64,000 bases of DNA from an uncultured Alphaproteobacteria bacterium (GCA_902586695.1 CACIIL010000003.1:1639-65638), one strand, 5' to 3'; shown: positions 5,347-37,237, counted from the first letter of the stretch. Made by a program: numbers and translations. The notes: generated by a model not told the origin, from the letters alone.

Positions 5347-5461
5347 AATTTACATATTTTACAAATATCAAAAAAAATCAATAAAATACTAGAAAATTAG
5401 GGTAAATCTTGTAAATAAAGTATTTATATATTATGTAATTTTGTAAATTTTGTAAATTATG
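5344..5461. promoter_or_regulatory. Divergent control region bounded by an imperfect 26-bp inverted repeat that embeds both start codons; contains tandem TTTGTAAAT repeats
   Basis: The right arm, 5436..5461, reads taattttgtaaattttgtaaattATG. The reverse complement of the left arm, 5344..5369, reads gatatttgtaaaatatgtaaattATG; 21 of 26 positions are identical. TTGTAAAT occurs at 5409, 5441 and 5450. Confidence 0.5.
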
Positions 5462-6898
5462 GAAATAAACGAAATATCAAATATCGGTTCAAAAATAAGA
5501 AAAGAGAGAAGGTCTAGAGGTTTTTCTCAGTCAGAATTATCAAAAAAATTAGATATTTCAGCAAGTTATTTGAATTTATTAGAAAGTGGTAGAAGAACTA
5601 TTACTGTCCCACTTTTGATAAAAATAGGCAACGAGTTAGGTCTTTCTTTAAAAGACTTAACTTTAGAGAGTAATAAAAGAATTTTATCAGATGTAATGGA
5701 TGTATTGAGTAATGAAATGTTTGATGATCTTGATATTACAAATCAAGAAACAACTGAATTTATAAGTTCAAATCCTACCATAGCAAAGGCTTTACTTGCA
5801 TTAAATGATGCACATAAATCATTTAAGGATGATATGCAAAATAGACTTGAGTCTATGGATATAAATGCAACAGTAGTAGAGCGCCCAAGTCGTTTACCAG
5901 TAGAAATTGTATCTGATTTTCTTCAAGATAATAAAAATTACTTTGAAGATATTGAATTGGCTTCTGAAATATTAAGGAAAAAAGTTGGATTAGATGATGG
6001 TCATAATATTGGTTCTGGTCTTAAATTAACAAACTATTTAAAATTAAAACACGACGTTATAGTCGAAATTGTTCCTGCTAGTGAAGAATTAAAATCTGTT
6101 CGTAATTTTGACAAAAAAAATAAAAAATTGCAATTATCTGAAATGTTAACTTATACATCTAGAAACTTTCATTTAGCTTACCAAGCTGCTTATTTAGAAG
6201 CTGAAGATGTAATAGATAAAATTATTAATGAAAATAATATTGAATCCACAGAAGTTCTACCTCTTTTGAAAATTTCACTCATAAATTACTTTGCATCAGC
6301 AATGTTAATGCCCTACGATGATTTTTTACAAATTGCAAAAAAAAATAAATATGATATTGAAATACTAATGCATCATTATGCATGCAGCTTTGAACAAGTT
6401 ACTCATAGGCTAACTAATTTACAAAAAACAGGGAACGAAGGTGTTCCTTTTCATTTCTTAAAAACTGATATAGCTGGAAATGTCTCAAAAAGATTTTCTT
6501 TATCAGGTATACACATACCTAGACATGGCGGTTCTTGTCCAAGATGGAATGTATATATAGCTTTTTTAAACCCAGGAAGAATTCATCCACAAATATCTAG
6601 AATGCCAGATGGTAAAGTATATTTTTGTATTGCTAGAGCTTTTGAAAAAGGTATCGAAAAACATGGAATGCCAAAAAGTTTCGTATCTATTGGCTTAGGA
6701 TGCGATATAAAATATGCTAGAGATTTGATATATTCTGAAGGTATGGATATTCAAAATAAAAAATTACAAACTCCAATTGGTGTTTCATGCAGAATTTGTC
6801 CTCGAATTGACTGTCAGCAGAGAGCATTTCCTCCAATTGATAAGGAGTTAAAATTAAATATTAATTATAGAGGTACTTCACCATACGTAACACTCTAA
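5459..6898 (+). CDS. XRE-family transcriptional regulator with ImmA/IrrE-like and DUF2083-like domains (RamB/PrpR/ScfR architecture)
   Basis: N-terminal HTH (RSRGFSQSELSKKLDISASYLNLLESGRR). The 479-aa length and Cys-rich C-terminus (GGSCPRWN ... CRICPRIDCQQRAFPP) match the RamB/PrpR type of acyl-CoA-responsive regulator. Confidence 0.75.
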   Translation: MEINEISNIGSKIRKERRSRGFSQSELSKKLDISASYLNLLESGRRTITVPLLIKIGNELGLSLKDLTLESNKRILSDVMDVLSNEMFDDLDITNQETTEFISSNPTIAKALLALNDAHKSFKDDMQNRLESMDINATVVERPSRLPVEIVSDFLQDNKNYFEDIELASEILRKKVGLDDGHNIGSGLKLTNYLKLKHDVIVEIVPASEELKSVRNFDKKNKKLQLSEMLTYTSRNFHLAYQAAYLEAEDVIDKIINENNIESTEVLPLLKISLINYFASAMLMPYDDFLQIAKKNKYDIEILMHHYACSFEQVTHRLTNLQKTGNEGVPFHFLKTDIAGNVSKRFSLSGIHIPRHGGSCPRWNVYIAFLNPGRIHPQISRMPDGKVYFCIARAFEKGIEKHGMPKSFVSIGLGCDIKYARDLIYSEGMDIQNKKLQTPIGVSCRICPRIDCQQRAFPPIDKELKLNINYRGTSPYVTL

Positions 6899-7902
6899 AT
6901 CTTTACTAGCATTTTACCTATATTTTTTCCATTTAACAAATCAACAAATGCTTTTGGACAATTATTTAATCCCTCATATACAGTTTCTCTAATTTTAATT
7001 TTTTCACTTATTAACCATTCGGTCATATTTTTAGTAAACTCTCCTTTTTCATTTTCATGATCAAATATTAAGAAACCTTTAATTGTTAGTCTTTTTACTA
7101 AAACATGAGCCATATTTTTTAATCCTGATCCAGTAGTTGAAGCATTCATTTGTGATATACGACCACATATAATAATTTTGCCAAAATTTTTCATTCTGTA
7201 TATTGCGGCTTCTAGAAAATCTCCACCTACATTATCAAAATAAATATCAAAACCATCTGGAGCTATTTCTTTTAATTTTAAGACTAAATTATTCGTTTTT
7301 TTATAATTAAAAGCATGATCAACTTTCAATTCATTTTTTAACCATTCAACTTTTTCATCGGAACCTGTGCTAGCAATTACTTTACAATCATTTATTTTTG
7401 CTATTTGGCAAACAAGAGAACCAACGCTTCCTCCAGCAGATGATACTAAAACAGTTTGGCCTTTTTTAATACTAGCCATTTTGTATAAACCAATATAAGC
7501 AGTATGCCCTGTCATACCTAAGGGACCCAAAAATGATTGTAAAGGCAGGTTTTTTGAATTTATTTTTTCTAAATTAATTTCTTTCTCTACAAACTTATCT
7601 CTCCAGCCACAATTACTTAAAACAAAATCACCCGTTTTAAAATTTTTAGAATTGCTTTTTATAACCTGCCCTATAGCAGAACCTTCCATTGGTTCCCCTA
7701 ATTTAAAAGGTGGTTTGTAATTTTTCTTTTCTGTCATTCTCGCTCGCATATATGGATCTACTGACAACCATAAATTATTAACTAAAATTTCATTTTTTTC
7801 ACTAATAGATATTTTTACCTCTTTAATTTCAAAATCTTCTTCTTTTGGAATTCCGATTGGTATATAATTTTTTAGGGTGACAAACTTTGAATTAATTGAC
7901 AT
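6895..7902 (-). CDS. NADP-dependent medium-chain oxidoreductase (alkenal/enone reductase, CurA/YncB/PTGR1-like)
   Basis: 335 aa with an LSVDPYMR N-terminal motif and the nucleotide-binding segment VLVSSAGGSVGSLVCQIAK. It is the last gene of the BKACE-lcdH operon. Confidence 0.75.
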   Translation of the reverse strand: MSINSKFVTLKNYIPIGIPKEEDFEIKEVKISISEKNEILVNNLWLSVDPYMRARMTEKKNYKPPFKLGEPMEGSAIGQVIKSNSKNFKTGDFVLSNCGWRDKFVEKEINLEKINSKNLPLQSFLGPLGMTGHTAYIGLYKMASIKKGQTVLVSSAGGSVGSLVCQIAKINDCKVIASTGSDEKVEWLKNELKVDHAFNYKKTNNLVLKLKEIAPDGFDIYFDNVGGDFLEAAIYRMKNFGKIIICGRISQMNASTTGSGLKNMAHVLVKRLTIKGFLIFDHENEKGEFTKNMTEWLISEKIKIRETVYEGLNNCPKAFVDLLNGKNIGKMLVKI

Positions 7903-7904
7903 TC

Positions 7905-8840
7905 TTATATCTTATATTTTTTTAATAATTTTTGTAAATCTATTAAAAAATTATCTCTTATATTAGATAGATTTTTAATAGATTTATTTTTTGATTGTAT
8001 TTTTGTTCCTTTAATAATTTTGTTTTTTAAACTTTTAGTTAAATTTGGGGCTTTTAATTTTGTCCATGGTAGTTTTAAAGCTGGACCGAACTGCTCTAAC
8101 ATATGTTTCATCCCCATTTCACCTCCAGCAAGATGGAAAGTTAAAAAAGTGCCCATTATTGACCATCTTAATCCAGGCCCATAAATTATAGCATCGTCTA
8201 AATCTTTAGTAGAAGCATATCCTTCATTTATAATATGCAAAGACTCTCTCCACATGGATTCCTGTAATCTATCTGATAGATAGCCTGGTAATTCTTTTTT
8301 TAGAATTATGGTTTTCATTCCAATTTCAACATAAAATTTTTGAGCTTTAAAAATATTTTTTTTATCTGTCTCTTTTCCTCTAACTAATTCAACTAAAGGT
8401 AAAAGATAAACAGGATTAAAAGGATGAGCAATTATTACTCTTTTTGGGTTAATGCACTTTGATTGAATTTTTGTTGGTAATAAACCAGAAGAACTTGATG
8501 CAATAATTGAGTCTTTTTTTGAATGCAAACTTATCTCTCTTATTATTTTTTTTTTTAATTTCTCATTTTCTGGTGCATTCTCTTGAATTAGTTCAGCTTC
8601 AGCAACTGCTTCTTTAATTGATGTACAGAATTTTAACTGTTTTTTTATATTTATTTTATTTTTATAAAATTTTTTTAAAATTGGTTCTACTCTTTTTATT
8701 TCTTCTAATAAAAATTTTTTTTGCTTAATATTTGGATCATAAATATTTATTATTTTTTTATTATATAGAAATCTTATTACCCAACCTGTACCAATAACTC
8801 CTGTTCCTATAACTGCAACTTTATTAATTGAATTAGGCAC
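7905..8840 (-). CDS. lcdH: L-carnitine dehydrogenase (3-hydroxyacyl-CoA dehydrogenase fold)
   Basis: Near-colinear with Pseudomonas LcdH as I recall it: VIGTGVIGTGW, HPFNPVYLLPLVE, PGLRWSIMGTFLTFHLAGGEMGMKHMLEQFGPALKLPWT. It is adjacent to a BKACE gene. Confidence 0.85.
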   Translation of the reverse strand: MPNSINKVAVIGTGVIGTGWVIRFLYNKKIINIYDPNIKQKKFLLEEIKRVEPILKKFYKNKINIKKQLKFCTSIKEAVAEAELIQENAPENEKLKKKIIREISLHSKKDSIIASSSSGLLPTKIQSKCINPKRVIIAHPFNPVYLLPLVELVRGKETDKKNIFKAQKFYVEIGMKTIILKKELPGYLSDRLQESMWRESLHIINEGYASTKDLDDAIIYGPGLRWSIMGTFLTFHLAGGEMGMKHMLEQFGPALKLPWTKLKAPNLTKSLKNKIIKGTKIQSKNKSIKNLSNIRDNFLIDLQKLLKKYKI

Positions 8841-8844
8841 TTAT

Positions 8845-9735
8845 TTAAAAATGTTTTTTTAAATTTAATTTATCTCTTGCTTCTTTAGGATTAAGTATTT
8901 TAGCACCTAAATCATTTATTATTCTTGAAGATTTCTCAACTAATTGAGCATTAGAAGCTAGGACACCTCTTTCTAAATATAAATTATCCTCTAGACCAAC
9001 TCTTACATTGCCTCCCAGAATAACTGATTGGGCAACCATTGGCATTTGATGTCTTCCTATTCCAAAACCAGCCCAATTAGCTTCTTTAGGGATCATATCT
9101 GCCATTACTTTCATTGAAGATGTGTTTGCCGGTGCCCCCCAAGGAATTCCCAAACAAATTTGATATAATGGAGGTGAGTCAATTAAACCTTCTTTATATA
9201 ATTGATTTGCAAACCATAAATGACCCATTTCAAAAGCTTCCATTTCTGGTTTAATTCCTAAATCTTGCATTTTTTTTGCAGCTGCTCTTAATTGAACAGG
9301 AGTATGAATAAATGTCATATTTGAGTCTCCAAAATTTAATGAACCACAATCTAATGTACAAATTTCTGGCAATAATTCCTCAATATGTTCTAATCTATCC
9401 AAAGCATGTATCATGTCTGTATTTGGTCCTAAAGGATTTAAAGGATTTTTACCTTCTCCAACTTCAAAATCTCCACCCATTCCTGTGGTAAAATTAATTA
9501 TTACATCTGTATCTGAAGATCGAATTCTGTCCGCAACCTCTTTATAGTATTCAAGTTTTCTACTTGGTTTTCCATCTGTTTCTCTTACATGTATGTGCGC
9601 GACAGCAGCTCCAGCCTTTGCAGCATCAATAGAAGCTTCAGCTATTTCTTTGGGAGTAATAGGTAGGTCTGGATGCTTGCTAACAGTATCACCAGAGCCA
9701 GTTACAGCACAACTTATAACAACTTCATTATTCAT
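8845..9735 (-). CDS. Beta-keto acid cleavage enzyme (BKACE/DUF849), probable 3-dehydrocarnitine cleavage enzyme
   Basis: 296 aa TIM-barrel-type BKACE pattern ([12 protein letters not shown] ... VAHIHVR ... [12 protein letters not shown]). The gene is immediately upstream of lcdH, the context described for dehydrocarnitine cleavage. Confidence 0.8.
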
Positions 9736-9778
9736 TTTTCTAAAAAAATGATGTATCTCACTTACAGGAAATTAACAA

Positions 9779-10246
9779 GTGTCTATATATTTAAAAACAG
9801 GAAAAGTTTTACCAGAGTGGACTGACTATAACGGTCATATGAATTTAGCTTTTTATATTCACCTTTTTGACTCTTCTTGGGAGGTATTGCTAGAGAAGTT
9901 TAACATAGGCGAAAATTCAGCAAAAAACGAAAAAAGAACTACATTTGCAGTAGAGTCTCATACTACATACGACATGGAGGTCAAAGTAGATGATGAAGTA
10001 GAAATGAACCTTCTTTTTCTAGATTTTGATAAAAAAAGATTAGTTTACAAATTAGAAATGATACATAAAAAAGAAAAATATTTAGCCTCAACTTCTGAGG
10101 TTTGTTCTTTATATGTCGATTTAAATTCAAGAAGGGTGACTGAATTTGAAGATAGCAAAAAAAAATTAATTCAAAACTTTATTGATACAAATAAAGATCA
10201 ATTCAATTCGGATAATTTGCATCTTATTAATAAATTAAAAAAATAA
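9779..10246 (+). CDS. Hotdog-fold (4HBT-like) acyl-CoA thioesterase, probable betainyl-CoA thioesterase
   Basis: 155 aa with a GTG start. The N-terminal WTDYNGHMNLAFY pattern is typical of hotdog thioesterases. It is divergent from the BKACE/lcdH operon. Confidence 0.65.
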   Translation: MSIYLKTGKVLPEWTDYNGHMNLAFYIHLFDSSWEVLLEKFNIGENSAKNEKRTTFAVESHTTYDMEVKVDDEVEMNLLFLDFDKKRLVYKLEMIHKKEKYLASTSEVCSLYVDLNSRRVTEFEDSKKKLIQNFIDTNKDQFNSDNLHLINKLKK

Positions 10247-10816
10247 TTACAGACCAAGATAAACATGTTTATGTGGCTCTCTGTTAAATATTCTGTGTAC
10301 CATAGGAATAAATTCTTTTAATTTAATAGTATCATAATTTGGATCAAATGAATTTTGATCATAGGTTTCACAAAAATTTACAGTATCTTTAAAAAAAGGA
10401 TGATCAATAAACTTGTCTCTTAAGTTTCTATCTTGTCCATAGTGATGGTTATAATAATATGATTGAAACAAGCCATGTTTTTGTACAATCCAATGAGTTT
10501 TTTCGGAAACAAAAGGTCTTAAAACAGCAGCAGAAATTTCAGAATGATTCAAGGGTGCTATTTCATCACCAATATCATGAAGAAGTGAAGCAACAATCAT
10601 TTCTTCATCTGCATTATCTCTTAAAGCTCTTGAGGCTGCCTGTAATGAGTGCTCTAGTCTAGATACTTGATATCCACCCAAAGAAGAATCAAGACTTTTC
10701 AAAATTCTTATCACTCTATCTGCAGTTCCTTCAATATACTTATCTTCAAATTTGGCGAGAAGATCATAATCTTCTTTATCACCATCCTTCATTTCAATAA
10801 ATTTTACTTTATCCAT
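10247..10816 (-). CDS. HD-domain protein resembling PhnZ/TmpB/MIOX mixed-valent di-iron oxygenases
   Basis: 189 aa. Candidate ligands are H56 (RLEHSLQAA), H80-D81 (LLHDIGD), H91 (NHSEISAAVLR), H114 (QKHGLF) and D153 (TYDQ). They line up with the six metal ligands of PhnZ as I recall that sequence. Confidence 0.6.
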   Translation of the reverse strand: MDKVKFIEMKDGDKEDYDLLAKFEDKYIEGTADRVIRILKSLDSSLGGYQVSRLEHSLQAASRALRDNADEEMIVASLLHDIGDEIAPLNHSEISAAVLRPFVSEKTHWIVQKHGLFQSYYYNHHYGQDRNLRDKFIDHPFFKDTVNFCETYDQNSFDPNYDTIKLKEFIPMVHRIFNREPHKHVYLGL

Positions 10817-10817
10817 A

Positions 10818-11264
10818 CTAAATCTCTAAATAATAATTATAATATTCTCTGTCTCTTTTGTAATCAAGTGATTCATACAGCGCTTGAGCTTTTTTATTAT
10901 TAATAGCAGTTGATAATTCTATTAATTTAATCTTTTTTTTACGACCAAATTTTTTAGCAATATCCATTAAAGATTTGCCTATTCCATTTTGTCTAAATTC
11001 TTTTTTTACATATAAATCATACAAAACTAATTTTTTGTTAATATTTAAAGAATCAAATGTTTCATAAAGTTGTACAAAACCCACGGGTTCTTTATCGCAA
11101 AAACACAAAAAAATAGTAGATTCTTTTTTAGAAATTCTTTCCTTAATATATTGAGTTGATTTTTTAATTTCAGTTTTATATTTGTAAAACTGTCTATATA
11201 AATCAAATAGAAAACCAACTTCTTTATAATTTTCTTTTTTTGCTTTAATAATTTTTATTTTCAT
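10818..11264 (-). CDS. GNAT-family N-acetyltransferase
   Basis: 148 aa with the acetyl-CoA-binding segment (RQNGIGKSLMDIAKKFG). It overlaps the upstream MFS gene by 4 nt. Confidence 0.75.
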   Translation of the reverse strand: MKIKIIKAKKENYKEVGFLFDLYRQFYKYKTEIKKSTQYIKERISKKESTIFLCFCDKEPVGFVQLYETFDSLNINKKLVLYDLYVKKEFRQNGIGKSLMDIAKKFGRKKKIKLIELSTAINNKKAQALYESLDYKRDREYYNYYLEI

Positions 11265-12430
11265 TTTTTAAAAGATCTAATAAAACCAATTATAATACTA
11301 AAACTAGTAAAAATTAATAGACTATAAATAAACCCCTCATTTCCAGTTTGATCCATAACTAAACCTACCGATATTGGTCCAATAAACTCACCTAATTCAT
11401 ATATTATTATAAATACAGAGGTAACAATTGCAATTTGCTTAATATCATATCTTTCACCTAAATATGCTAATGAAACAGTATATAGACTAATGCTGGAACA
11501 TCCCCATATTATTACTGAAAAATAAACTGCAATATTTAAGTTTATTATTTTTAAAAGCAATATTGGCCATATAATATTTCCAAATAGAAGAATAAAAATA
11601 AATTTTCTTTTATCTACTTTATCAGACAAGGCTCCAACTAAAGGTTGCGTTATAACGCCAACAAAAGCTCCTAAGAAAAAATACAAACCAATTTGTTTAT
11701 CTGAAAAAAATTCATTTATCATAAAAGCTGGAAAAAGAGCTCCGAATGAAGAGTCATTTACGCCTGCCACAAATATAGCTATAAAAATGAAAGGAGCAAA
11801 TAAAACAAAAGAAAAATTTATTTTATTATTTTGACTAGGTATCTTTACTTCATGAATATGTTTTTTAATAAAAATGATAGTTAAAATTCTCAAAGACATT
11901 AGGATTAAGCAAATTATTACAGGTAAATTTCCTGAGCTTCCATAAAATGCAACAATTAATGGACCAACTCCAAACCCTATAGAAATAGAAGAATTATATA
12001 AACCTATAGCTTTCCCTCTATTTTTATCACTAGAAACTATGTTAGCCCAAGCATCCATTGTCATCCAATTCATCCCTCCCATAAGACCCATAACAAAATG
12101 ACAAATTGCTAGATTAATTGGATTAAAATAAGCAAACATAGAAATTATACATACAGTTTGTAAAGATACTGAAAATATAAGTGTCAAAAATAAACCAATT
12201 TTATTAAGTACTTTTGTGACTATAAAACCTGCTGACATTAATCCAAAAGAAAAACAAGAAGCTACAATTCCAATTGTAAATTCTGAATAACCTGCGTATT
12301 TTTGTAAAATTACTATAATTGTAAAAAAATATCCTAAAACAACGCCAGTAAAAAAAGCAACAATTGATAAATATTTAATACTAGAATTTACAGTGCTAAA
12401 ATCTGCATAATTTTTAATTGCAGAAAACAT
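11261..12430 (-). CDS. MFS transporter
   Basis: 389 aa, about 12 hydrophobic segments and an MFS loop motif (DKVDKRK). Confidence 0.75.
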   Translation of the reverse strand: MFSAIKNYADFSTVNSSIKYLSIVAFFTGVVLGYFFTIIVILQKYAGYSEFTIGIVASCFSFGLMSAGFIVTKVLNKIGLFLTLIFSVSLQTVCIISMFAYFNPINLAICHFVMGLMGGMNWMTMDAWANIVSSDKNRGKAIGLYNSSISIGFGVGPLIVAFYGSSGNLPVIICLILMSLRILTIIFIKKHIHEVKIPSQNNKINFSFVLFAPFIFIAIFVAGVNDSSFGALFPAFMINEFFSDKQIGLYFFLGAFVGVITQPLVGALSDKVDKRKFIFILLFGNIIWPILLLKIINLNIAVYFSVIIWGCSSISLYTVSLAYLGERYDIKQIAIVTSVFIIIYELGEFIGPISVGLVMDQTGNEGFIYSLLIFTSFSIIIGFIRSFKK

Positions 12431-12439
12431 TACGTAAAT

Positions 12440-13816
12440 TTAATCTTTCCATAAACCTTCTGTTTTAAGTTGTTGAAGAGAATTTTGAATAGCAGTAAAT
12501 AATTTTTCAACAAGATCATCAATTTGTGATTTTGTAATTATTAAAGCAGGAGATAAAACACAAATATGATAGAGCGGTCTAATAATTAAGCCTAATTTAA
12601 TTGATTCCTCATCAATTCTTGATCCTATAGCTTTATCTAAAATAAGTGCTTCCTTACTATCTTTATTTATTACACATTCTATGCCTGCCATTAATCCTTT
12701 ACCTCTTACATCTCCAACAATTGGTAATTCATACAATTTTTGTAATTTATTATGAAAGTAGGGTTCAATTTCTTGAACATGTTCAAGAATTTTATCTCGT
12801 TTGATTATTTCTATGTTTTTTAGTGCTGCAGCACAACATGCTGGATGCCCTGAATAAGTATAGCCGTGAAAAAAAAGTGCTGATTCTTTTTTAATATCAT
12901 TTAGTAATTTGTCAGAAAATAGGACAGCTCCAAGAGGCATATATCCTGAAGTAATTCCTTTAGCACAAGTTATGATATCTGGAACTATGTCAAAAACTTC
13001 TTCAGAAGAAAAAAAATGACCCATTCTTCCAAATCCTGTTACTACTTCATCTGATATATATAAAACATCATATTTTTTGCATATTTGCCATATTCTTTTT
13101 AAGTATCCTTCAGGAGGGACAATACAACCACCTGAAGCCATGACTGGTTCAGCAATAAAAGCTGCAACATTTTCTGATCCTAATTCTATTATTTTATCTT
13201 CAAATTCTTTTACAAGTTCATCACAAAATTCTTCAATTGTTTGGTTATTTTTTCTTCTATAAGAAAGAGGTGAGCTCAAATGATGAATGAAATTTTTTTC
13301 AAAATCAAAATTATTTTTTTCCCTATCTTTACCTGTTATCGATCCTGTAAGGTAAGTGCTTCCATGATAAGCTTTATGCCTAGTGATAAAATGTTTTTTA
13401 TTAGGTCTATCTAATATGTTATTATAAAACATAATAAATCGTAGAGCAGTATCATTGGCTGTAGAGCCATCAGTAGTAAAAAAAACTGTATTAAGATCGC
13501 CAGGAGACAATTCAGATAGAACAGAAGCTAATTCAGCAGAAATTTCACTAGATTCTGAAAAAGGGCTGCAATATTCCAATTTTTCAAGTTGATTTTTAAC
13601 AGCCTCACCTATCTCTTTATTTCCGTGCCCTATGTTATTGCACCACATTCCTCCAGGTCCATCAATGTATTCTTTTCCATTCTCATCATAAAGATATATA
13701 TTATCTGATTTTACAATAAGCTTGCGGTCATATGTTCCTCTACTTTCCATATCTTCATAAGGATGGAGAACAAGTTTATCTTTCTTATGGATTTCACTAA
13801 CATAATCATTTTTCAT
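12440..13816 (-). CDS. Class-III (omega) aminotransferase, PLP-dependent
   Basis: 458 aa with HGYTYSGHP, DEVVTGFGRMG and the PLP-lysine context ITCAKGITSGYMPLGA. Confidence 0.85.
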   Translation of the reverse strand: MKNDYVSEIHKKDKLVLHPYEDMESRGTYDRKLIVKSDNIYLYDENGKEYIDGPGGMWCNNIGHGNKEIGEAVKNQLEKLEYCSPFSESSEISAELASVLSELSPGDLNTVFFTTDGSTANDTALRFIMFYNNILDRPNKKHFITRHKAYHGSTYLTGSITGKDREKNNFDFEKNFIHHLSSPLSYRRKNNQTIEEFCDELVKEFEDKIIELGSENVAAFIAEPVMASGGCIVPPEGYLKRIWQICKKYDVLYISDEVVTGFGRMGHFFSSEEVFDIVPDIITCAKGITSGYMPLGAVLFSDKLLNDIKKESALFFHGYTYSGHPACCAAALKNIEIIKRDKILEHVQEIEPYFHNKLQKLYELPIVGDVRGKGLMAGIECVINKDSKEALILDKAIGSRIDEESIKLGLIIRPLYHICVLSPALIITKSQIDDLVEKLFTAIQNSLQQLKTEGLWKD

Positions 13817-13836
13817 GATTTAACTGTATCATTCAC

Positions 13837-13850
13837 TGAATGAGCATTCA
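13837..13850. promoter_or_regulatory. Palindromic operator candidate TGAATGAGCATTCA (site 1)
   Basis: Perfect 14-bp palindrome, flanked by further ATTCA/TGAAT half-sites (attcacTGAATgagcATTCAatgaaa). It lies exactly 20 nt upstream of the aminotransferase ATG at 13816. Confidence 0.6.
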
Positions 13851-13869
13851 ATGAAATAATTTTTATATT

Positions 13870-14646
13870 CTATTTATCTTTCCAATTCGGATCTGTTTTT
13901 TTAACAAAAGAAGAAGCTCCTTCTTTTAGATCTTCACTTCCATAAACTTTTTTTACCGATTCTAATGATCGCAAAATTTTAAATGATGGTATTTCCTTTT
14001 CGTTTTCTGTTTCTCTTAAAACTTCTTTAATTGAAGAATAAATTAAATTAGGTCCTTTTGAAATTTTATCAGCTATTTCCCAGGCTCTTTTTAATAAATC
14101 ATTTGTTTTAACAATTTCATTTACTAAACCCCAGTGTTTTGCTTCTTTGACATCCATCCATCTTCCAGTCATTAAAAACTCAACAGCTATGTGATAGGGT
14201 ATGCGTCTTCTTAATTTTATTGTAGCTGCGTCAGCTACAACTCCTACATTGATTTCAGGTAACGCAAATGTTGCGTGTTCTGCTGCAATTATAATATCTG
14301 CTGAAATCATAATTTCAAAACCACCACCGCACGCAATACCATTAACAGCTGCTATAATAGGTTTGTTCATATTAGGTAACTCTTGCAGTCCTCCAAATCC
14401 ACCAACACCATAATCTGCATCAGCAGCTTCTCCTTCATTAACAGCCTTTAGATCCCATCCGGCAGAAAAAAATTTTTCTCCGCCACCTGTAACGATAGCT
14501 ACTTTAAGTTTTGGATTATCTCTAAAGTCAGCAAATATGTCTCCCAACATTATACTTGTCTTAGCATCTATCGCATTAGCTTTTGGTCGATCGATAGTTA
14601 TCTCTAATATTGATCCTTCAATTCTTGTTTTAACTGGTTTGTCCAT
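13870..14646 (-). CDS. caiD: Crotonobetainyl/carnitinyl-CoA hydratase-like enoyl-CoA hydratase
   Basis: Near-colinear with E. coli CaiD as I recall it: GSILEITIDRPKANAIDAKTS, GEKFFSAGWDLKA, IAAVNGIACGGGFE, DPNWKDK C-terminus. Confidence 0.75.
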   Translation of the reverse strand: MDKPVKTRIEGSILEITIDRPKANAIDAKTSIMLGDIFADFRDNPKLKVAIVTGGGEKFFSAGWDLKAVNEGEAADADYGVGGFGGLQELPNMNKPIIAAVNGIACGGGFEIMISADIIIAAEHATFALPEINVGVVADAATIKLRRRIPYHIAVEFLMTGRWMDVKEAKHWGLVNEIVKTNDLLKRAWEIADKISKGPNLIYSSIKEVLRETENEKEIPSFKILRSLESVKKVYGSEDLKEGASSFVKKTDPNWKDK

Positions 14647-14654
14647 AAATTAAA

Positions 14655-16691
14655 CTATATTAAATAATGTATTAAAGCATCTACAGCAAATACACCTTTA
14701 CCTTTTTTACAAACTATTAGTGGATTTATATCAACTTCTGAAATTTTATCTGAATTTTTTTCAGCAAAAACAGCTACTTTTAATATTGTATTTATTAATG
14801 CATCAATATCAGCACTATCACTTCCTCTAAAACCAAATAATATTTTGCTAAATTTAAGTTTTTTTATTTCATCCAAAATTATTTTTTTATTTAAAGGTAA
14901 AAGTAGGGTAGTCGTATCTTTAAATAATTCGGTATAAATACCACCAGCACCTAATATTATTGTAGGTCCAAATTGGTTATCATTTTTTATGCCTATTATC
15001 ATTTCAAAAATCGAATTTGATATCATTTTTTCAATTAAAATATTACCTCTAAATTTATTTGTCTTTTGCTTTAATTCTTTTTCATTATTAATGTTAGTAA
15101 TAACACCTCCAATTTCAGTTTTATGAAAAACTGTAGTTGAATGTATTTTTGCAACTAAAGGAAATCCTATTTTTTTACAATCTCGCAAAATATTTTTTTT
15201 ATTTGTAATTAAAGATTTTGGTGTAGATATTTTAAATTTTTTTAGGATTAATTTTGATTCATATTCTGTATATGTTTTAATTTTATTTTTATAATTTTGT
15301 AAATTTTTTGAAATTTTAATTTCACTAAAATTACTCCAAGCTTTTGAAATTTTTATTGAATTACTTATGGCTAGTAAACTCTCTGACATACCCTGAAGTG
15401 GGACAACTCCTGACCTGAGACATTTTTCTCTTAGATGTTTAGGAAGGGTATCTGAAAGTGAAGAAATAATCGCTCCATTTTTTTTTATTTTTGATGATTT
15501 TATAAATTGATCTACTATAGCATCCCATTCTGCAGTGTCACAATCTTCTATATTTGGAAAATCTAACATCAGTGCATTTAAACCAAAATTAGTTTTAAAT
15601 ATTAATTTAAATGTTTTTGCTAATTGCTTAGGGTCATTCCAGTTGTATGTTTGTAGATCAAATGGATTTGAAATTATAACACTTGGGTGATTAACTTTTT
15701 TTAATTCATTTTTTATTTTTGTAGGTATTTTACCAAAATTTAACGACAAATTTTCTGCTACGTCTCCTATCATAGCCATATCACCACCTGATGGGCCCAT
15801 AATTGAAATTTTATCGTTATTTAAAACACCATGAGTGTGAAATAATTTTAAAATTTCACATAATTCTCCTAATGTATTACATCTAGCTACACCCATTCTT
15901 TGAAATAAAGAATCATATATATCTTCTTTCCCACTTAATGATCCAGTATGTGTTAATATTGTTTGAGACGCAGTTTTAGATCTGCCTACTTTAACTAATG
16001 CTATAGGAATTTTTTTTAATCTGGATTTTTTAAATACTTTTATTAACTTTTCTGTATTGGTAAAACTTTCAGCATAAATTCCAATAGCAGTAACTCTCTT
16101 ATCATCTAAAGCAAAATTAATGGCATCTTCTATAGTTATTTGTGATTGATTGCCGAGAGAAATTATATACCCAATTGGTAAAGATCTATTATTAAAACTA
16201 ATCGTATTACCAATAGTTCCGCTTTGACATATAATAGCAACACCTTTTTTAGTGGGTTTGCCTGCTACTTGATCAGACCATACTGAAATTCTATCCAAGT
16301 AATTTATAAATCCATAACAGTTTGGTCCAAGGAATGGCATTTCGCCAGCATTCCTAATTAGCTCATTAGTTTTATTAGTACCTTCTTTAGAATTAAGTTC
16401 AGAAAATCTCGAAGCTAAACAAACAGTTCCTCCAACACCTATGTCAGCAATATCTTTTATTAATTTTACTGTTTGATCTCTTGAGACAGCTAGATAAACG
16501 CAATCAGGTACTTCTGGAAGATCTTTAATATTTTTATAATATTTTTTTGCTTTGGAACTTTTACGTGAAGGATTAATATGCCAAACTTTACCTTGATAGC
16601 CAATAGTTTTATTGCCATCATAAACAAAGTCTGCCCAATACCCTCCAACTAAAGCAAGGCTTTTTGGTCTAAAAAGTTTTTTTAAATTCAA
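14655..16691 (-). CDS. ADP-forming (NDP-forming) acyl-CoA synthetase, fused CoA-binding/ligase and ATP-grasp domains
   Basis: 678 aa. The N-terminal CoA-binding fold (FRPKSLALVGG) and succinyl-CoA-synthetase-like flavodoxin domains are followed by a C-terminal ATP-grasp (FPLVAKIHSTTVFHKTEIGGV). Confidence 0.75.
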   Translation of the reverse strand: MNLKKLFRPKSLALVGGYWADFVYDGNKTIGYQGKVWHINPSRKSSKAKKYYKNIKDLPEVPDCVYLAVSRDQTVKLIKDIADIGVGGTVCLASRFSELNSKEGTNKTNELIRNAGEMPFLGPNCYGFINYLDRISVWSDQVAGKPTKKGVAIICQSGTIGNTISFNNRSLPIGYIISLGNQSQITIEDAINFALDDKRVTAIGIYAESFTNTEKLIKVFKKSRLKKIPIALVKVGRSKTASQTILTHTGSLSGKEDIYDSLFQRMGVARCNTLGELCEILKLFHTHGVLNNDKISIMGPSGGDMAMIGDVAENLSLNFGKIPTKIKNELKKVNHPSVIISNPFDLQTYNWNDPKQLAKTFKLIFKTNFGLNALMLDFPNIEDCDTAEWDAIVDQFIKSSKIKKNGAIISSLSDTLPKHLREKCLRSGVVPLQGMSESLLAISNSIKISKAWSNFSEIKISKNLQNYKNKIKTYTEYESKLILKKFKISTPKSLITNKKNILRDCKKIGFPLVAKIHSTTVFHKTEIGGVITNINNEKELKQKTNKFRGNILIEKMISNSIFEMIIGIKNDNQFGPTIILGAGGIYTELFKDTTTLLLPLNKKIILDEIKKLKFSKILFGFRGSDSADIDALINTILKVAVFAEKNSDKISEVDINPLIVCKKGKGVFAVDALIHYLI

Positions 16692-16694
16692 AGA

Positions 16695-17846
16695 TTATGC
16701 TCCAAGGGGTCTTAGAAGTGAACGTGAAATAATATGACGTTGAATTTCACTGGTTCCTTCCCAAATTCTTTCTATTCTTGCATCTCGCCATATTCTTTCA
16801 AGTGGAATATCTGACATCAATCCCATTCCACCAAGGATTTGAATAGCTTCATCTGAGATTCTGCTTAACATTTCAGTACAAAATAATTTTGTCATAGCCG
16901 CATCTTGAGATGTTAATGTTTTTTGATCAATTTTCCAAGCAGACTCCATTAATATCAAGTTTGCTAGTTTAATTTCTGTAGCCATATCAGCTAATTTAAA
17001 TGAAACACCCTGAAATTTTCCAATTACTTTTCCAAATTGTTTTCTATTTGCAGACCAATCCAAGGCTATATCAAAAGCTCTTTCGGCTCTAGATACAGAA
17101 GTTGCCGCAACAGTTAAACGAGTTGCTTCTAACCAAACATTCATTAGCTCAAAGCCTTTATCTTTTTCACCAAGAATATTTCTTGCAGGAATTCTGCAAT
17201 CATTAAAGTTTAAAATATTATTAACGTATCCTCTGTGAGAAACACAGTCATAACCTTTTGCAACCTCAACTCCTTTTTGTTTTAAATCAACTAAGAAACA
17301 CGAAAGTAAATTTCTACCTTTTTCATCTTCACCTGTTGAGGCAAAAAGTACTACAAAGTCAGATATGTGTGCATTAGATATAAAATGTTTTGTTCCATTA
17401 ATCACCCAATCATTACCATCCTTAACTGCTTTTGTTTTCATCCCCCGTAAATCTGAACCAGCTCCTGGTTCTGTCATTGCTATGCAATCTTTTCTCTCAC
17501 CTGTGATAGCTGGTTTTAAGTATTCATCGATTAATTCACCTTCACAGGCCATTAAGATATTTTGTGGTCGCCAAGCAACTTCCGCTAAAGCAAGTGATGC
17601 AAAACCGAGATGTTTTTCAACTAAAGTTAAATCAAAAGCATTTAAACCACCACCACCATGTTCAGTGGGCATATTGCAAGCATACAAACCTGCTTTAATA
17701 CTTTTTTGCTTAATTTCATCATACAATTCTTTTGGTAAATTATTTGTTTTTTCTAATAATTCTTCGTGTTGAAGCAATTCTGCTTTTACAAATGACTTAG
17801 TAGTATCAATTAAAAGATTCTGTTCTTCTGAAAGATTAAATTCCAT
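16695..17846 (-). CDS. Acyl-CoA dehydrogenase
   Basis: 383 aa with TEPGAGSD, QFGK.IG.FQ and the C-terminal IWEGTSEIQRHIISR. Confidence 0.85.
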   Translation of the reverse strand: MEFNLSEEQNLLIDTTKSFVKAELLQHEELLEKTNNLPKELYDEIKQKSIKAGLYACNMPTEHGGGGLNAFDLTLVEKHLGFASLALAEVAWRPQNILMACEGELIDEYLKPAITGERKDCIAMTEPGAGSDLRGMKTKAVKDGNDWVINGTKHFISNAHISDFVVLFASTGEDEKGRNLLSCFLVDLKQKGVEVAKGYDCVSHRGYVNNILNFNDCRIPARNILGEKDKGFELMNVWLEATRLTVAATSVSRAERAFDIALDWSANRKQFGKVIGKFQGVSFKLADMATEIKLANLILMESAWKIDQKTLTSQDAAMTKLFCTEMLSRISDEAIQILGGMGLMSDIPLERIWRDARIERIWEGTSEIQRHIISRSLLRPLGA

Positions 17847-17852
17847 TATTCT

Positions 17853-19055
17853 TTATGTAAACGCAGGTGTTTCATTTCTTCTTGGATTGTTAAAAAATTG
17901 CTTTTTAACCACTTTACATTCAGCCCAAATTTTTCTGTAATCCAGCTCTTCTGGATGATAAATTTCAGCATAAACATTTGATCCTAATTTATAATGTTCT
18001 TTGCTAACAAATCCAATCGCAATATTAGATTTTAGGACAGGGGACCACATTGCAGCTGTCACTATACCAATTTCTTTGGCTTGATTTTTTTTACTATTAT
18101 CGTAGAGTACAGAACCAACGGCAGGTTTATCTCCTTCAATATCTAATCCCACGAGTTTTTTTTCAGGACCTTTTTCTTTGTGTCTAATTAATGCCTGTTT
18201 TCCAGTAAAATACTCTTTATTTAGATTTACTAACCAGCCCAAACCTAATTCATAGGGGTTTCTCATTCTATTGGGTCTTAAAGCTTGTTCCGCAGACATA
18301 AAATCTACATTAGGTTGGATAAAACCAGCTTCAATTCTCACCATCTCAAGTGCATTCATTCCAGCTGCTAGTACTTTATAGTCTCTATTAAATTTAAATA
18401 AACTATCCCATACACCAATGGCTTGAGAAGGGTCACACCATATTTCATAACCTAAGTCTCCAGAAAAACCTGTTCTGGAAATTGTAACATTATGATTTTC
18501 AATATTATAATTATTAAAATGAAATGGTTTTAGGTTTTCTATATTTTCTACTTTTAATAAATTTAATATCTTACAAGATAATGGCCCTTGAAAAGCTAAA
18601 GCTGCAATTGATGGACTTATATCCTCAACACTTGCTTTAAATCCCGTAGCTGTGTCAGAAAACCAATTTAGATTTCGTTCTGCACAAAAAATTCTAAAAT
18701 GATTTTCATTAAAGCAAAATATTGTTCCATCATCAATTACCATTCCATCTTCATTGCACCATATGCCATAGACAACTTGGTTTGATTGAATATTAGTAAT
18801 ATCTTTTGTGATTAATTTATTAATAAACTTTTTAGCATCCTCACCTTTGATATCATATTTATGCATAGGAGTAATATCAATTACCCCAGCTGTATTTCTC
18901 ATTGAAGTATATTCAAGTTCTGTTGATGAGTACTCTTTAGCAACTTTATAACCAGCCCATCTATACCAATCATTTGCATAACAATGCTCAGATGTTCTTT
19001 CGTGAAAAGGTGTCTCTAAGAGAGGTTTTTTGTATGATATTTTTGATGTATTCAT
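17853..19055 (-). CDS. Aminomethyltransferase-family (GcvT/DmdA-like) folate-binding protein, stand-alone
   Basis: 400 aa with TPFHERT, EYTSMRNTAGVIDITP, SRTGFSGDLGYEIW and VRIEAGF, all typical of the GcvT fold. Its start overlaps the upstream flavoprotein's stop by 1 nt (TAATG). Confidence 0.75.
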   Translation of the reverse strand: MNTSKISYKKPLLETPFHERTSEHCYANDWYRWAGYKVAKEYSSTELEYTSMRNTAGVIDITPMHKYDIKGEDAKKFINKLITKDITNIQSNQVVYGIWCNEDGMVIDDGTIFCFNENHFRIFCAERNLNWFSDTATGFKASVEDISPSIAALAFQGPLSCKILNLLKVENIENLKPFHFNNYNIENHNVTISRTGFSGDLGYEIWCDPSQAIGVWDSLFKFNRDYKVLAAGMNALEMVRIEAGFIQPNVDFMSAEQALRPNRMRNPYELGLGWLVNLNKEYFTGKQALIRHKEKGPEKKLVGLDIEGDKPAVGSVLYDNSKKNQAKEIGIVTAAMWSPVLKSNIAIGFVSKEHYKLGSNVYAEIYHPEELDYRKIWAECKVVKKQFFNNPRRNETPAFT

Positions 19056-20521
19056 TATTTTAAATCCTCTATTACTTTTTTTGCAGCATTAAGACCGTTG
19101 ATACCTGTTAATCCTCCTCCAGGATGGGTTCCTGCACCACATAAATATAAACCATTTATAGGTGTAGAATATTGAGCTGATCCATAAAAAGGTCTCATCA
19201 TTAATAATTGATCTATTTCTAAATCACCGTGATGCCAATGCCCTCCTGCTATATTAAACTTTTCTTCCATTTTATTGGGAGTGATGAGTTTTTGTTTTAC
19301 TATTTTCATATCTGGAATAAATTTACTTAAAACTGAAACACATCTTTCAATTATTTCATTTTCTTGATGATTAGTATTAATTAAATACGGAACATAATAA
19401 ACATTAGCTGATAAGGTTTTTTGATTAACGTAAAACTCAAGGCATGGATTTTCAGAATATTTGTTATATTTATTAGCATTAAATGCATGTTCTATGTACT
19501 TAATACCAGGAGCATAAATAAACTTTCCGTTCATTTTTTTATCAATATTATTAATGTTAATTTCATTTTCTAACTCTAATTCAAGCTTAGCAACATTTCC
19601 TTTATTTCTAAAATTTTTAGTTCTTCTAATAAAATCAGTATCTAGGATTTCTGCACCTAATAAATTTAAATAAGTTGTTTTAGGGTCAGCATTAGACATT
19701 ACATATTTTGATTCAAAAACCTCACCATTTGTTAATTGAACGCCAGTGACAGAGTTATTTTGAGTTAATATTTTTTTAACTTCAGAGGATTTAATGATTT
19801 CAACAGTATTTTTATTACAGCAATCTTCTAACTGATTAATATATTCTGCAACTTCTATTTTGTTTAAATTAAAAATATTGTCATTGATAGCTTGTTTATA
19901 AAGTAAAGTTAATATTGAGCCTGGAGATCTTGGACCTAGGTTTGTTCCTAAAACAGCTTCATGGGATAATAGACCCATTAGATTATTGCTATTTAAATTA
20001 TCTTCTAAGTCATCTGCGATATTTAAACCAATTACTCTTAATAGTTCACGCATATTTTTTTTACCTAATTTTCTAATTTTCCATCCCATAGAAATTAATT
20101 GAAATAAGTCAGCTCTTTTACCTGATTTAACTCTTGGTGGTTTTTGAAACATAAATGCACCAAGAGTTTTTGAAAAGAATTTGTAGTTATTGATAATTGA
20201 CAAGAATTTCTTTTGATCATTTTCATCAGCATTTGTTTGAACAAAAGATAATTTGCCATTTTTATCTGACAAAATTGTATGATTTTGATTATCCTCTAGT
20301 GATATAATATTATTTGAATGATTAATATTATTAACATTAATCCCTAATTCTTTTTTAATGATTGGTGAGATACAGTTTATTGATTCTGCATATTCCGCTA
20401 ATCCTCCAACGTTTTCGTTTTTTTCAATTACCAAAACTTTTTTTCCTTTTTTTGATAAGTATGAAGATGCAACTAATCCATTGTGACCTCCACCAATTAT
20501 TATGACATCAAATTTTTTCAT
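19055..20521 (-). CDS. FAD/NAD(P)-dependent oxidoreductase, CrtI/PYROXD2-like (divergent paralogue)
   Basis: 488 aa with DVIIIGGGHNGLVASSYL and the C-terminal GLYLCGAGTHPGGGLTGINGLNAAK. It overlaps the upstream paralogue by 4 nt (ATGA). Confidence 0.75.
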   Translation of the reverse strand: MKKFDVIIIGGGHNGLVASSYLSKKGKKVLVIEKNENVGGLAEYAESINCISPIIKKELGINVNNINHSNNIISLEDNQNHTILSDKNGKLSFVQTNADENDQKKFLSIINNYKFFSKTLGAFMFQKPPRVKSGKRADLFQLISMGWKIRKLGKKNMRELLRVIGLNIADDLEDNLNSNNLMGLLSHEAVLGTNLGPRSPGSILTLLYKQAINDNIFNLNKIEVAEYINQLEDCCNKNTVEIIKSSEVKKILTQNNSVTGVQLTNGEVFESKYVMSNADPKTTYLNLLGAEILDTDFIRRTKNFRNKGNVAKLELELENEININNIDKKMNGKFIYAPGIKYIEHAFNANKYNKYSENPCLEFYVNQKTLSANVYYVPYLINTNHQENEIIERCVSVLSKFIPDMKIVKQKLITPNKMEEKFNIAGGHWHHGDLEIDQLLMMRPFYGSAQYSTPINGLYLCGAGTHPGGGLTGINGLNAAKKVIEDLK

Positions 20522-22146: not shown

Positions 22147-22166
22147 TGTATTTTCTTATATTTCTT

Positions 22167-22180
22167 TGAATGAGCATTCA
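22167..22180. promoter_or_regulatory. Palindromic operator candidate TGAATGAGCATTCA (site 2) in the divergent tetR / flavoprotein-operon spacer
   Basis: The 14-mer is identical to site 1. It lies exactly 20 nt upstream of the minus-strand ATG at 22146 and 42 nt upstream of the TetR ATG. Confidence 0.65.
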
Positions 22181-22222
22181 ACCAAATTTCTTGTAAAATC
22201 AAGCTTTTTATGAAAAACTGTA

Positions 22223-24948: not shown

Positions 24949-24950
24949 AA

Positions 24951-25760: not shown

Positions 25761-25766
25761 AAAATT

Positions 25767-26849: not shown

Positions 26850-26874
26850 CCAGTCCTCAAAAAGAGAACAGGCT
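26848..26874 (-). terminator. Imperfect hairpin plus T-run; terminator of the binding-protein gene, overlapping the potA-like stop codon
   Basis: AGCCAGTCCTC-aaaaa-GAGAACAGGCT pairs at 9 of 11 positions. On the minus strand it is followed by TTTTTT. Confidence 0.5.
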
Positions 26875-26899
26875 ATTTAGATATTGAACTAAACTTTGA

Positions 26900-29547: not shown

Positions 29548-29567
29548 AGATATTGCTTTAATTTAAT

Positions 29568-29581
29568 TAAATAGACATTCA
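29568..29581. promoter_or_regulatory. Degenerate operator candidate TAAATAGACATTCA (site 4)
   Basis: 9 of 10 half-site positions match TGAAT-N4-ATTCA. It lies 20 nt upstream of the amidase ATG at 29547, in the divergent amidase/GS-like spacer. Confidence 0.4.
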
Positions 29582-29605
29582 ATTATTTTTTTCATATAAA
29601 TTTAT

Positions 29606-32064: not shown

Positions 32065-32066
32065 TT

Positions 32067-34524: not shown

Positions 34525-34543
34525 AAGTTAGTATAAATTTCAT

Positions 34544-34557: not shown

Positions 34558-34568
34558 ATCAATATTAT

Positions 34569-37171: not shown

Positions 37172-37237
37172 ATGGATTAATAATTGGACTTATTCTTGTT
37201 TAGAGAAATAAATTAGATAAAGACATATATATTCTTT

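Follow-up and report, generated by a model that had tools for sequence, protein, structure and literature searches.

A SAR11 gene cluster with candidate enzymes for a CoA-dependent route from gamma-butyrobetaine via carnitine to glycine betaine

The pathway from gamma-butyrobetaine via carnitine to glycine betaine is already known from strain Lonza HK4 and from Sinorhizobium meliloti. Here we describe a gene cluster that probably encodes SAR11 versions of its enzymes, located at positions 6895-17846 of a 64,000-nucleotide stretch of DNA from an uncultured Alphaproteobacteria bacterium (GCA_902586695.1, CACIIL010000003.1:1639-65638; this whole stretch is called the window). The S. meliloti bco/cdh pathway, reportedly worked out by Bazire et al. 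in 2019, is said to use BcoA/B, BcoC, BcoD, a fused carnitine dehydrogenase-thioesterase and an enzyme of the BKACE family. The carnitine part is also represented by the cdhCAB genes of Pseudomonas aeruginosa, which encode a BKACE protein, carnitine dehydrogenase and the thioesterase-like CdhB and are accompanied by CdhR; the Pseudomonas cdh operon is not known to contain a bco trio. In two other reports, S. meliloti BcoAB is used as gamma-butyrobetaine:CoA ligase (PMC8364193) and the fused enzyme is assigned both carnitine dehydrogenase activity and betainyl-CoA hydrolysis (PMC12482172), and a passage on strain Lonza HK4 calls the conversion of butyrobetaine to carnitine "analogous to fatty acid degradation" (PMC2131755). 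For SAR11, cdh-type genes have been reported from an Arctic genomic island with ADH-CDH-BKACE genes, an acyl-CoA thioesterase, choline dehydrogenase and a betaine-type ABC transporter (PMC12421898), and "carnitine metabolism" genes were noted in offshore SAR11 genera (PMC12636525). In the literature we found no SAR11 example of the CoA-dependent trio, and no description of the composite operon in which it is embedded here.

The window belongs to SAR11 (Pelagibacterales) and has a G+C content of ~29%. When genomes were scanned with the acyl-CoA synthetase (ACS) of the cluster, taking one genome per species, the best match was the single-cell genome AG-457-I08 (99% identity), followed by 13 more Pelagibacterales genomes in which the ACS is 64-86% identical and the whole gene string is kept. 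Protein families were assigned with NCBIfam and Pfam profile searches, with the curated cutoffs of NCBI as reference for bit scores (Table 1). An initial annotation of the window had proposed the pathway and listed seven genes, and each of these open reading frames (ORFs) was recovered intact, at the same coordinates and in the family then named. They are tightly packed on the minus strand, with the thioesterase as the sole exception; since the ORFs are long and the E-values range from 1e-16 to 1e-100, chance is no concern. The hydratase, an acyl-CoA dehydrogenase (ACAD) and the fused ADP-forming synthetase indeed lie together at 13870-17846, and the BKACE and hotdog thioesterase genes, the latter on the opposite strand, fall within 7905-10246. 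We consider it likely that region 6895-17846 encodes SAR11 versions of the five enzyme types of the rhizobial pathway and that these follow the route set out below. The assignment of a route from gamma-butyrobetaine via carnitine to glycine betaine is well supported by sequence and gene order, because the trio is orthologous to trios elsewhere whose layout beside BKACE-LcdH is that of rhizobial bco/cdh genes, and the thioesterase is homologous to the domain that is fused to carnitine dehydrogenase.

Table 1. Features of the cluster and its surroundings, in window coordinates.
Feature	Position	Strand	Basis or remark
ScfR/RamB-type regulator	5459-6898	+	HTH_3, M78-like and ScfRs domains; convergent with the CurA-like gene
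CurA/PTGR1-like NADP-dependent medium-chain dehydrogenase/reductase (MDR)	6895-7902	-	NF058644 329 bits (cutoff 440); Pfam ADH_N_2 and ADH_zinc_N; closes the BKACE-LcdH string
L-carnitine 3-dehydrogenase candidate (LcdH/CdhA type, without fused thioesterase)	7905-8840	-	NF005471 335 bits, NF005716 329 bits
BKACE, candidate dehydrocarnitine cleavage enzyme (dehydrocarnitine + acetyl-CoA to betainyl-CoA + acetoacetate)	8845-9735	-	PF05853 321 bits
Hotdog (4HBT_2) thioesterase, candidate for betainyl-CoA (possibly carnitinyl-CoA)	9779-10246	+	PF13279 75 bits
PhnZ/TmpB-like HD-domain protein (putative diiron oxygenase)	10247-10816	-	PhnZ match E 9e-7; TmpB match
GNAT N-acetyltransferase	10818-11264	-	PF00583 63 bits; kept in SAR11 loci
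MFS transporter	11261-12430	-	PF07690 158 bits
Class III (omega) aminotransferase	12440-13816	-	NF005447 662 bits, over the cutoff of 618
Second copy of the operator palindrome, CTGAATGAGCATTCAA	13836-13851		one mismatch; within the 53 nt between CaiD and the aminotransferase
Crotonobetainyl-CoA hydratase candidate (CaiD/BcoD type)	13870-14646	-	NF002936 297 bits (cutoff 500; next family 205)
Fused ADP-forming ACS, candidate gamma-butyrobetaine-CoA synthetase (BcoA/B type)	14655-16691	-	CoA_binding_2, Succ_CoA_lig and ATP-grasp_5
ACAD, candidate gamma-butyrobetainyl-CoA dehydrogenase (BcoC type)	16695-17846	-	four ACAD domains
GcvT-like folate-binding protein	17853-19055	-	uncharacterised; predicted N-demethylation module
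CrtI/amine-oxidase-like flavoproteins FADox1 and FADox2	19055-20521, 20518-22146	-	first genes of the ten-gene string
Candidate BetI/TetR operator palindrome, TTGAATGAGCATTCAA	22166-22181		in the 76-nt divergent FADox2/BetI spacer
BetI-type TetR regulator	22223-22861	+	TIGR03384 106 bits; PF13977
Second acyl-CoA dehydrogenase (ACAD2)	22864-24042	+	62% identical to the TetR-adjoining ACAD of locus L083
PotB, PotC, PotA-like ABC transporter and PotD-type binding protein	24064-27988 (PotD type 26900-27988)	+ (PotD type -)	candidate uptake system

The trio was compared with 64 loci from outside SAR11 that were fetched with the ACS and whose hosts include Rhizobiales (Hoeflea, Mesorhizobium and others), many roseobacters and Gammaproteobacteria. 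ACAD, ACS and CaiD-type genes stand in the same order in 54 of these, and half of the loci (32/64) carry both BKACE and LcdH, mostly as BKACE-LcdH-(SDR)-ACAD-ACS-CaiD, where SDR is a short-chain dehydrogenase/reductase. With the ACADs of bco-type trios, the ACAD of the window shares 52-66% identity (29% with E. coli CaiA); its catalytic Glu stands within an IWEGTSEIQ motif, and the CaiD identities between window and non-SAR11 trios go up to 63%. In a neighbour-joining tree rooted with the unrelated, non-orthologous ACS of locus L083, the SAR11 ACS proteins form a clade inside the bco-type ACS family, far from the root sequence, with those of L015 and of the cdh-linked Rhodobiaceae locus L016 as closest outgroups.

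The hydratase is 49% identical, over its full length, to the characterised E. coli CaiD; this is clear homology, and the description "very close" in the initial annotation goes too far. Together with E. coli CaiD and the operon-linked homologs it has the motifs DRPKANAID, GEKFFSAGWDLKA, DxDYGVGGFGGL, GGGFE and FALPE, which are missing from the unrelated hydratase of L083, and both catalytic Glu residues are kept as in E. coli CaiD. Close homologs carry the public names carnitinyl-CoA dehydratase or crotonobetainyl-CoA hydratase and are numerous in ocean metagenomes, Tara included; an exact-sequence look-up of the CaiD-like protein itself returned no record. The E. coli cai operon (CaiTABCDE), which serves anaerobic carnitine respiration, is otherwise a different system, and membership of it was rejected with CaiD as the sole match: the annotated window genes include no CaiB CoA-transferase, CaiC AMP-forming ligase, CaiT BCCT antiporter or CaiE, and the direction in the window would be oxidative towards carnitine, so that the physiology differs.

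Among the carnitine genes, LcdH gives its two best scores with models for carnitine dehydrogenase, and the 3-hydroxyacyl-CoA dehydrogenase model comes next with 204 bits. Its closest solved structures are lambda-crystallin/L-gulonate 3-dehydrogenases of the free-acid type, not hydroxyacyl-CoA dehydrogenases. Both carnitine models score under their cutoffs. The protein is 39-51% identical to the LcdH proteins of cdh-bco operons and retains the His/Glu pair of the family (AHPFNP...LVELV). BKACE, encoded 4 nt upstream, is 47-64% identical to LcdH-adjoining BKACEs elsewhere and matches the PDB entries 3c6c (305 bits) and 2y7d (Kce, 164 bits); its HxH and GxEDN metal/catalytic motifs are conserved and align with those of the structurally studied Kce. 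Within the 495-residue model PRK07531 for fused carnitine dehydrogenase, the small thioesterase aligns with positions 345-477 (E 4e-16), and it is 24-32% identical to the C-terminal domain of 465-507-residue LcdH proteins from outside SAR11 (E 1e-7 to 1e-16). Such fused LcdH-thioesterase proteins occur in ~19 of the non-SAR11 loci and other loci have a short LcdH with a separate thioesterase; therefore the SAR11 layout corresponds to one of two existing architectures. The 43-nt spacer between thioesterase and BKACE holds a conserved block, with no palindrome and no copy of the operator discussed below.

Every step of the CoA-dependent route to glycine betaine that was claimed initially has an intact candidate gene, an assignment that draws on trio orthology, the ACS tree, the CaiD motifs and the homology of the thioesterase. 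The fused synthetase would ligate gamma-butyrobetaine to CoA, after which the ACAD would form crotonobetainyl-CoA, with electrons presumably passing to electron-transferring flavoprotein, and the CaiD-type hydratase would produce L-carnitinyl-CoA. L-Carnitine may then be freed by the hotdog thioesterase or by the synthetase acting in reverse, and LcdH would oxidise it to 3-dehydrocarnitine. Subsequently, BKACE would convert 3-dehydrocarnitine and acetyl-CoA to betainyl-CoA and acetoacetate, and the thioesterase would release glycine betaine from betainyl-CoA. The genes are present and intact, belong to the families and subfamilies named, keep the catalytic motifs, and are orthologous and syntenic to those of cdh-bco operons; from this we infer the substrates, the direction of flux and the enzyme that frees carnitine from its CoA ester.

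Similar to the S. meliloti bco/cdh system, the cluster offers the same enzyme type for each step (ADP-forming CoA synthetase, ACAD, CaiD-type hydratase, candidate LcdH, BKACE and hotdog thioesterase), and the order ACAD-ACS-CaiD is that of cdh-bco operons in Rhizobiales and many marine bacteria. Unlike in S. meliloti, where it is the C-terminal domain of LcdH, the thioesterase is encoded by a separate gene on the opposite strand, the single operon is broken up and rearranged so that the trio lies in a different one, and the HD-domain, CurA-like, GNAT, MFS and aminotransferase genes are extra and SAR11-specific. The canonical one-operon arrangement BKACE-LcdH-ACAD-ACS-CaiD was not encountered in SAR11, where ACAD-ACS-CaiD is followed by four genes, the thioesterase on the opposite strand and BKACE-LcdH. 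The combination of LcdH, BKACE and a separate small thioesterase for carnitine conversion to glycine betaine resembles P. aeruginosa cdhCAB, whereas a CdhR-type regulator is lacking in the window; among the non-SAR11 loci, L025 encodes an AraC/DJ-1 regulator similar to CdhR, in divergent orientation to BKACE.

The CurA-like, LcdH, BKACE, thioesterase, choline dehydrogenase and ABC transporter genes of the window correspond to those of the Arctic SAR11 island. However, that island is annotated with two genes resembling gamma-butyrobetaine dioxygenases and lacks a CoA-dependent trio (PMC12421898), whereas the window has the trio and no dioxygenase, and the two therefore look like alternative feeds of butyrobetaine-type compounds into the same cdh core. 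The initial annotation had stated that the genome needs no gamma-butyrobetaine hydroxylase; a TauD/BBOX-type gene is lacking among the ORFs annotated across the 64-kb window up to its end, and the statement holds for the window, not for the genome. [quoted passage not shown] If the proposed route is correct, part of the SAR11 population would turn carnitine and butyrobetaine into glycine betaine and acetoacetate, and thereby gain methyl groups, nitrogen and carbon by a route without oxygenase, as opposed to the dioxygenase-like genes of the Arctic island.

Several observations weigh against the proposed route. The LcdH, CaiD and CurA-like scores, although the best for each protein, are all under the curated cutoffs (414 and 592 bits for the two LcdH models, against 335 and 329 found; 297 against 500 bits for the hydratase). 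The ACS is only 31-40% identical to the bco-type ACSs of the fetched loci, L015 as one of its two nearest outgroups is without carnitine context, and ~6 loci with at least 8 kb of flanking DNA on both sides have the trio without BKACE or LcdH. LcdH is cleanly absent from three SAR11 loci, in which the CurA-like gene directly follows BKACE (L003, 16964-18868; L017; L087, 4467-6371); the genomes without LcdH at this place are AG-447-P01, AG-426-I04 and MarineAlpha5_Bin9. The trio of SAR11 appears to be co-transcribed with a flavoprotein/GcvT module, and in L083 and L084 this module has an ACS and a hydratase of its own after GcvT, at the same position as the trio and 25% and 28% identical to the ACS and CaiD of the window. 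In two roseobacter metagenome-assembled genomes, a DmdA-like gene of the GcvT family is found directly upstream of a trio with CaiD motifs (L051, 2149-7300; L054, 7665-12804); the flanks of the L054 trio, 8.8 kb upstream and 9.2 kb downstream, contain no BKACE or LcdH.

The DmdA-like gene of L051 and L054, which scores 371 bits against a cutoff of 410 for dimethylsulfoniopropionate (DMSP) demethylase, invites a scheme with sulfur analogues as in the Dmd and DddX systems. Here a GcvT-family demethylase would act next to a synthetase for DMSP or methylmercaptopropionate, and ACAD and hydratase would be DmdC and DmdD analogues; a solved relative of the ACS is indeed the ATP-dependent DMSP lyase DddX (7cm9, 179 bits). 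The ACS is far nearer to bco-type ACSs (tblastn E 1e-130 to 1e-179) than to DddX, however, the hydratase has CaiD-specific motifs, and the GcvT-like protein of the window reaches 166 bits on the DmdA model (cutoff 410) and is closer to the folate domain of trimethylamine N-oxide demethylase (252 bits). With these scores the window proteins do not belong to DmdABCD/DddX, and we regard the sulfur scheme as the least probable of the readings considered here.

The division of the pathway genes over two operons, as initially proposed, is too simple because the trio sits in a larger operon under an apparent BetI-type operator. Ten co-directional genes run from 22146 to 10247, in the order FADox2, FADox1, GcvT-like, ACAD, ACS, CaiD, aminotransferase, MFS, GNAT and HD, with overlaps or gaps of at most 9 nt save for one 53-nt spacer between CaiD and the aminotransferase; FADox2, FADox1 and the GcvT-like gene overlap or are at most 6 nt apart. 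The FADox2-FADox1-GcvT module also occurs outside SAR11, in L082-L084, together with a BetI-type TetR regulator, PotABC and an aminotransferase. The aminotransferase that follows GcvT in L082 is 57% identical to that of the window, the ACAD2 ortholog (62% identity) accompanies the module in non-SAR11 loci, and BKACE and LcdH are absent from the contigs L082-L084. We found no description of this module in a literature search; it probably represents a folate-linked N-demethylation pathway.

The 14-nt core of the palindrome upstream of FADox2 occurs at 4 sites in the window with at most 1 mismatch, against 0.34 expected. The site at 22166-22181 is kept in 11 SAR11 loci and, outside SAR11, in the corresponding spacer of L082, and an exact core is present at the position of the CaiD/aminotransferase spacer in L001, L002, L003, L012 and L017. 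Near-copies of TTGAATGAGCATTCAA are seen at 3441-3456 (56 nt upstream of choline dehydrogenase), at 34543-34558 (upstream of a Rieske GbcA-like gene) and at 29567-29582 (in an amidase/GlnA-like spacer). With its copies in promoter-proximal spacers, the arrangement looks like one predicted BetI-type regulon over much of the first 38 kb, and the operon that hosts the trio probably answers to a BetI-type repressor. Scans for sigma-70 promoters and terminators were not used because the sites were no more frequent than in shuffled sequence of this AT-rich DNA.

This embedding raises the question whether the trio mainly serves its host operon, comprising the flavoproteins, the GcvT-like protein, the aminotransferase and ACAD2 with the Rieske GbcA-like oxygenase nearby. 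It would then activate a different N-methylated or onium carboxylate and beta-oxidise its carbon skeleton, with the use of butyrobetaine secondary or absent. The genes from 22146 to 13870 overlap or are at most 8 nt apart downstream of one candidate operator in front of the flavoprotein gene, L083 and L084 have the ACAD2 ortholog and their own ACS and hydratase without BKACE or LcdH, and in L087 GcvT is joined to the aminotransferase without a trio in between. Orthology speaks against this: the trio belongs with cdh-linked trios (ACAD 52-66%, CaiD up to 63% identity), and the ACS and hydratase of L083 and L084 were ruled out as orthologs by their 25% and 28% identity. Moreover, L088 and L089 have the trio and the cdh genes without flavoprotein and GcvT genes, and BKACE, LcdH and thioesterase lie in the same cluster of the window. 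We therefore consider service to the host operon unlikely and retain the butyrobetaine route.

Since L087 has GcvT directly followed by the aminotransferase, the trio is an insert: the bco trio has been spliced into a separate operon, where it parts the GcvT-like gene from that of the aminotransferase. The DNA of locus L008 is 98-99% identical to the window from ~24000 to ~18000 (ACAD2-BetI-FADox2-FADox1-GcvT), after which identity drops to 92%, to 81% and finally to 68-77% across ACAD and ACS; this drop marks a sharp recombination breakpoint at the junction of the two modules (window ~17400-18000). The SAR11 ACS proteins fall in two allele classes with 84-86% and 64-67% identity, while the flanking genes stay at 85-96%.

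Variation among the SAR11 loci leaves HD-thioesterase-BKACE as the invariant core. L087 reads GcvT-aminotransferase-MFS-GNAT-HD-thioesterase-BKACE-CurA, without trio and LcdH; L088 and L089 carry the trio, the aminotransferase and the genes up to HD-thioesterase-BKACE-LcdH-CurA, without flavoproteins and GcvT; and in L085 PotDABC is followed by HD-thioesterase-BKACE-LcdH, without trio, aminotransferase and CurA. L003 and L017 resemble the window except for the missing LcdH, and L004 except for the missing CurA. Such a core is compatible with a BKACE that cleaves another beta-keto acid, delivered either by the CurA-like dehydrogenase or, starting from a beta-amino acid, by the aminotransferase, in which case the core would not belong to a carnitine pathway. 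The BKACE family takes diverse beta-keto acids (NetSyn preprint), three loci keep BKACE and the CurA-like gene without LcdH, and aminotransferase, MFS and GNAT genes go with the core in most variants. Yet LcdH directly follows BKACE in 15 of 18 SAR11 loci, L085 has HD-thioesterase-BKACE-LcdH without an aminotransferase, BKACE is 47-64% identical to the BKACEs of cdh operons, and the thioesterase is homologous to the domain fused to carnitine dehydrogenase. Cleavage of another beta-keto acid hence seems improbable, and dehydrocarnitine remains our preferred substrate for BKACE.

The CurA/PTGR-like gene was confirmed at the end of the carnitine string, 2 nt past LcdH. Both genes are present in 13 of the 18 SAR11 loci, CurA alone in 3 and LcdH alone in 2, and neither is missing together with the other (0 loci), which is suggestive of interchangeable functions, with numbers too small for proof. 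Some PTGR-family enzymes reduce enoyl thioesters, and an NADPH-dependent CurA-like enzyme that reduces crotonobetainyl-CoA would find its place in a pathway of the opposite direction, in which glycine betaine or carnitine would be turned into carnitine and gamma-butyrobetaine for use as compatible solutes. In principle, the reactions of ADP-forming synthetases, LcdH and hydratases can run backwards; the thioesterase, however, would render the betainyl-CoA step effectively irreversible, and L087, which has no trio, still has the CurA-like gene together with BKACE. Isotope label in the field did move from glycine betaine to carnitine and trimethylammoniobutyrate, in organisms and by pathways that are unknown, but SAR11 bacteria catabolise glycine betaine for its methyl groups (PMC9321204). 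We consider synthesis very improbable and the catabolic direction of the butyrobetaine route the better description.

The accessory genes are the more interesting part of the cluster. Four of them fill the 3.6 kb that separate the two gene groups, for the aminotransferase, the MFS transporter, the GNAT protein and the HD-domain protein. The gene for the latter adjoins thioesterase and BKACE in every SAR11 variant seen, including L085, L087, L088 and L089. Outside SAR11 it was found in 2 of the 64 loci, adjoining the cluster in one, and was rejected as a regular member of cdh-bco clusters there. The protein has 5313 homologs at E<=1e-10. Its sequence similarity to PhnZ and TmpB is limited to the N-terminal ~50 residues, with a LEHSLQ...LLHD motif in common, and the His/Asp residues at seven positions (H56, H80, D81, H91, H114, D153/D158) are invariant in 18 homologs, a number that could supply the six metal ligands (H, HD, H, H, D) of the PhnZ/TmpB type. 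With an AF2 model of moderate confidence (pLDDT 71), Foldseek gave nothing but solved structures of PhnZ and TmpB among its ten best hits, with TM values of 0.5-0.63; the next HD hydrolases follow at E >=0.17. The product of TmpB is glycine betaine, formed from a trimethylammonium phosphonate that carries a hydroxyl group (title of PDB entry 6npa). A partner Fe/2-oxoglutarate hydroxylase of the PhnY*/TmpA type, in contrast to those systems, is lacking among the ORFs annotated across the window.

These genes suggest a modular "betaine funnel", a joint picture that we put forward tentatively and with rather low confidence. In it, the HD-thioesterase-BKACE core suggests an oxygen-dependent step on a hydroxy-trimethylammonium compound, possibly carnitine or a phosphonate analogue. 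The CurA/PTGR-like MDR enzyme would represent a carnitine (or D-carnitine) dehydrogenase of a new type that feeds BKACE and is exchanged with LcdH, and the trio would lie within a widespread BetI-controlled operon of flavoprotein, GcvT and omega-aminotransferase genes for a new folate-linked N-demethylation of methylated amines in marine bacteria. Both the flavoprotein FADox2 (at least 8000 homologs) and the HD-domain protein are abundant and are candidates for new amine-catabolic chemistry.

Substrates may be taken up via the flanking ChoXWV-like and PotABCD-like transporters. A potD-annotated binding protein of strain HTCC1062 binds glycine betaine and DMSP (PMC11485210). At 2736-3512, an SDR gene separates choline dehydrogenase from the ABC transporter. 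Several cdh-bco operons from outside SAR11 (L025, L033 and others) have a homolog of it (33-49% identity) next to BKACE and LcdH or between the two; the enzyme could be a D-carnitine or 3-hydroxybutyrate dehydrogenase.

On the other side, the Rieske oxygenase encoded at 34569-35810 resembles GbcA, a glycine betaine monooxygenase subunit (340 bits, cutoff 670), and is a candidate for the demethylation of quaternary amines; its gene is directly preceded by a near-copy of the palindrome. Two overlapping minus-strand ORFs at 33186-34040 and 34000-34524 match the C-terminal (residues 164-434) and N-terminal (17-131) parts of one DAO-family oxidoreductase, of which an intact paralog is encoded at 37238-38554, and this split indicates a frameshift due to either a pseudogene or a sequencing error. 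The segments 28072-33110 and 35807-38554 hold genes for an amidase, two glutamine-synthetase-like proteins, N-carbamoylputrescine amidase, agmatine deiminase and a DAO-family oxidase. With these amine genes beside the cluster, the window up to 38.5 kb is thus one amine/osmolyte catabolic island, and housekeeping genes follow beyond ~38.5 kb. The ScfR/RamB-type regulator borders the cluster in all SAR11 variants; it may control isocitrate lyase instead, because it is divergent from the isocitrate lyase gene in L088 and L089.

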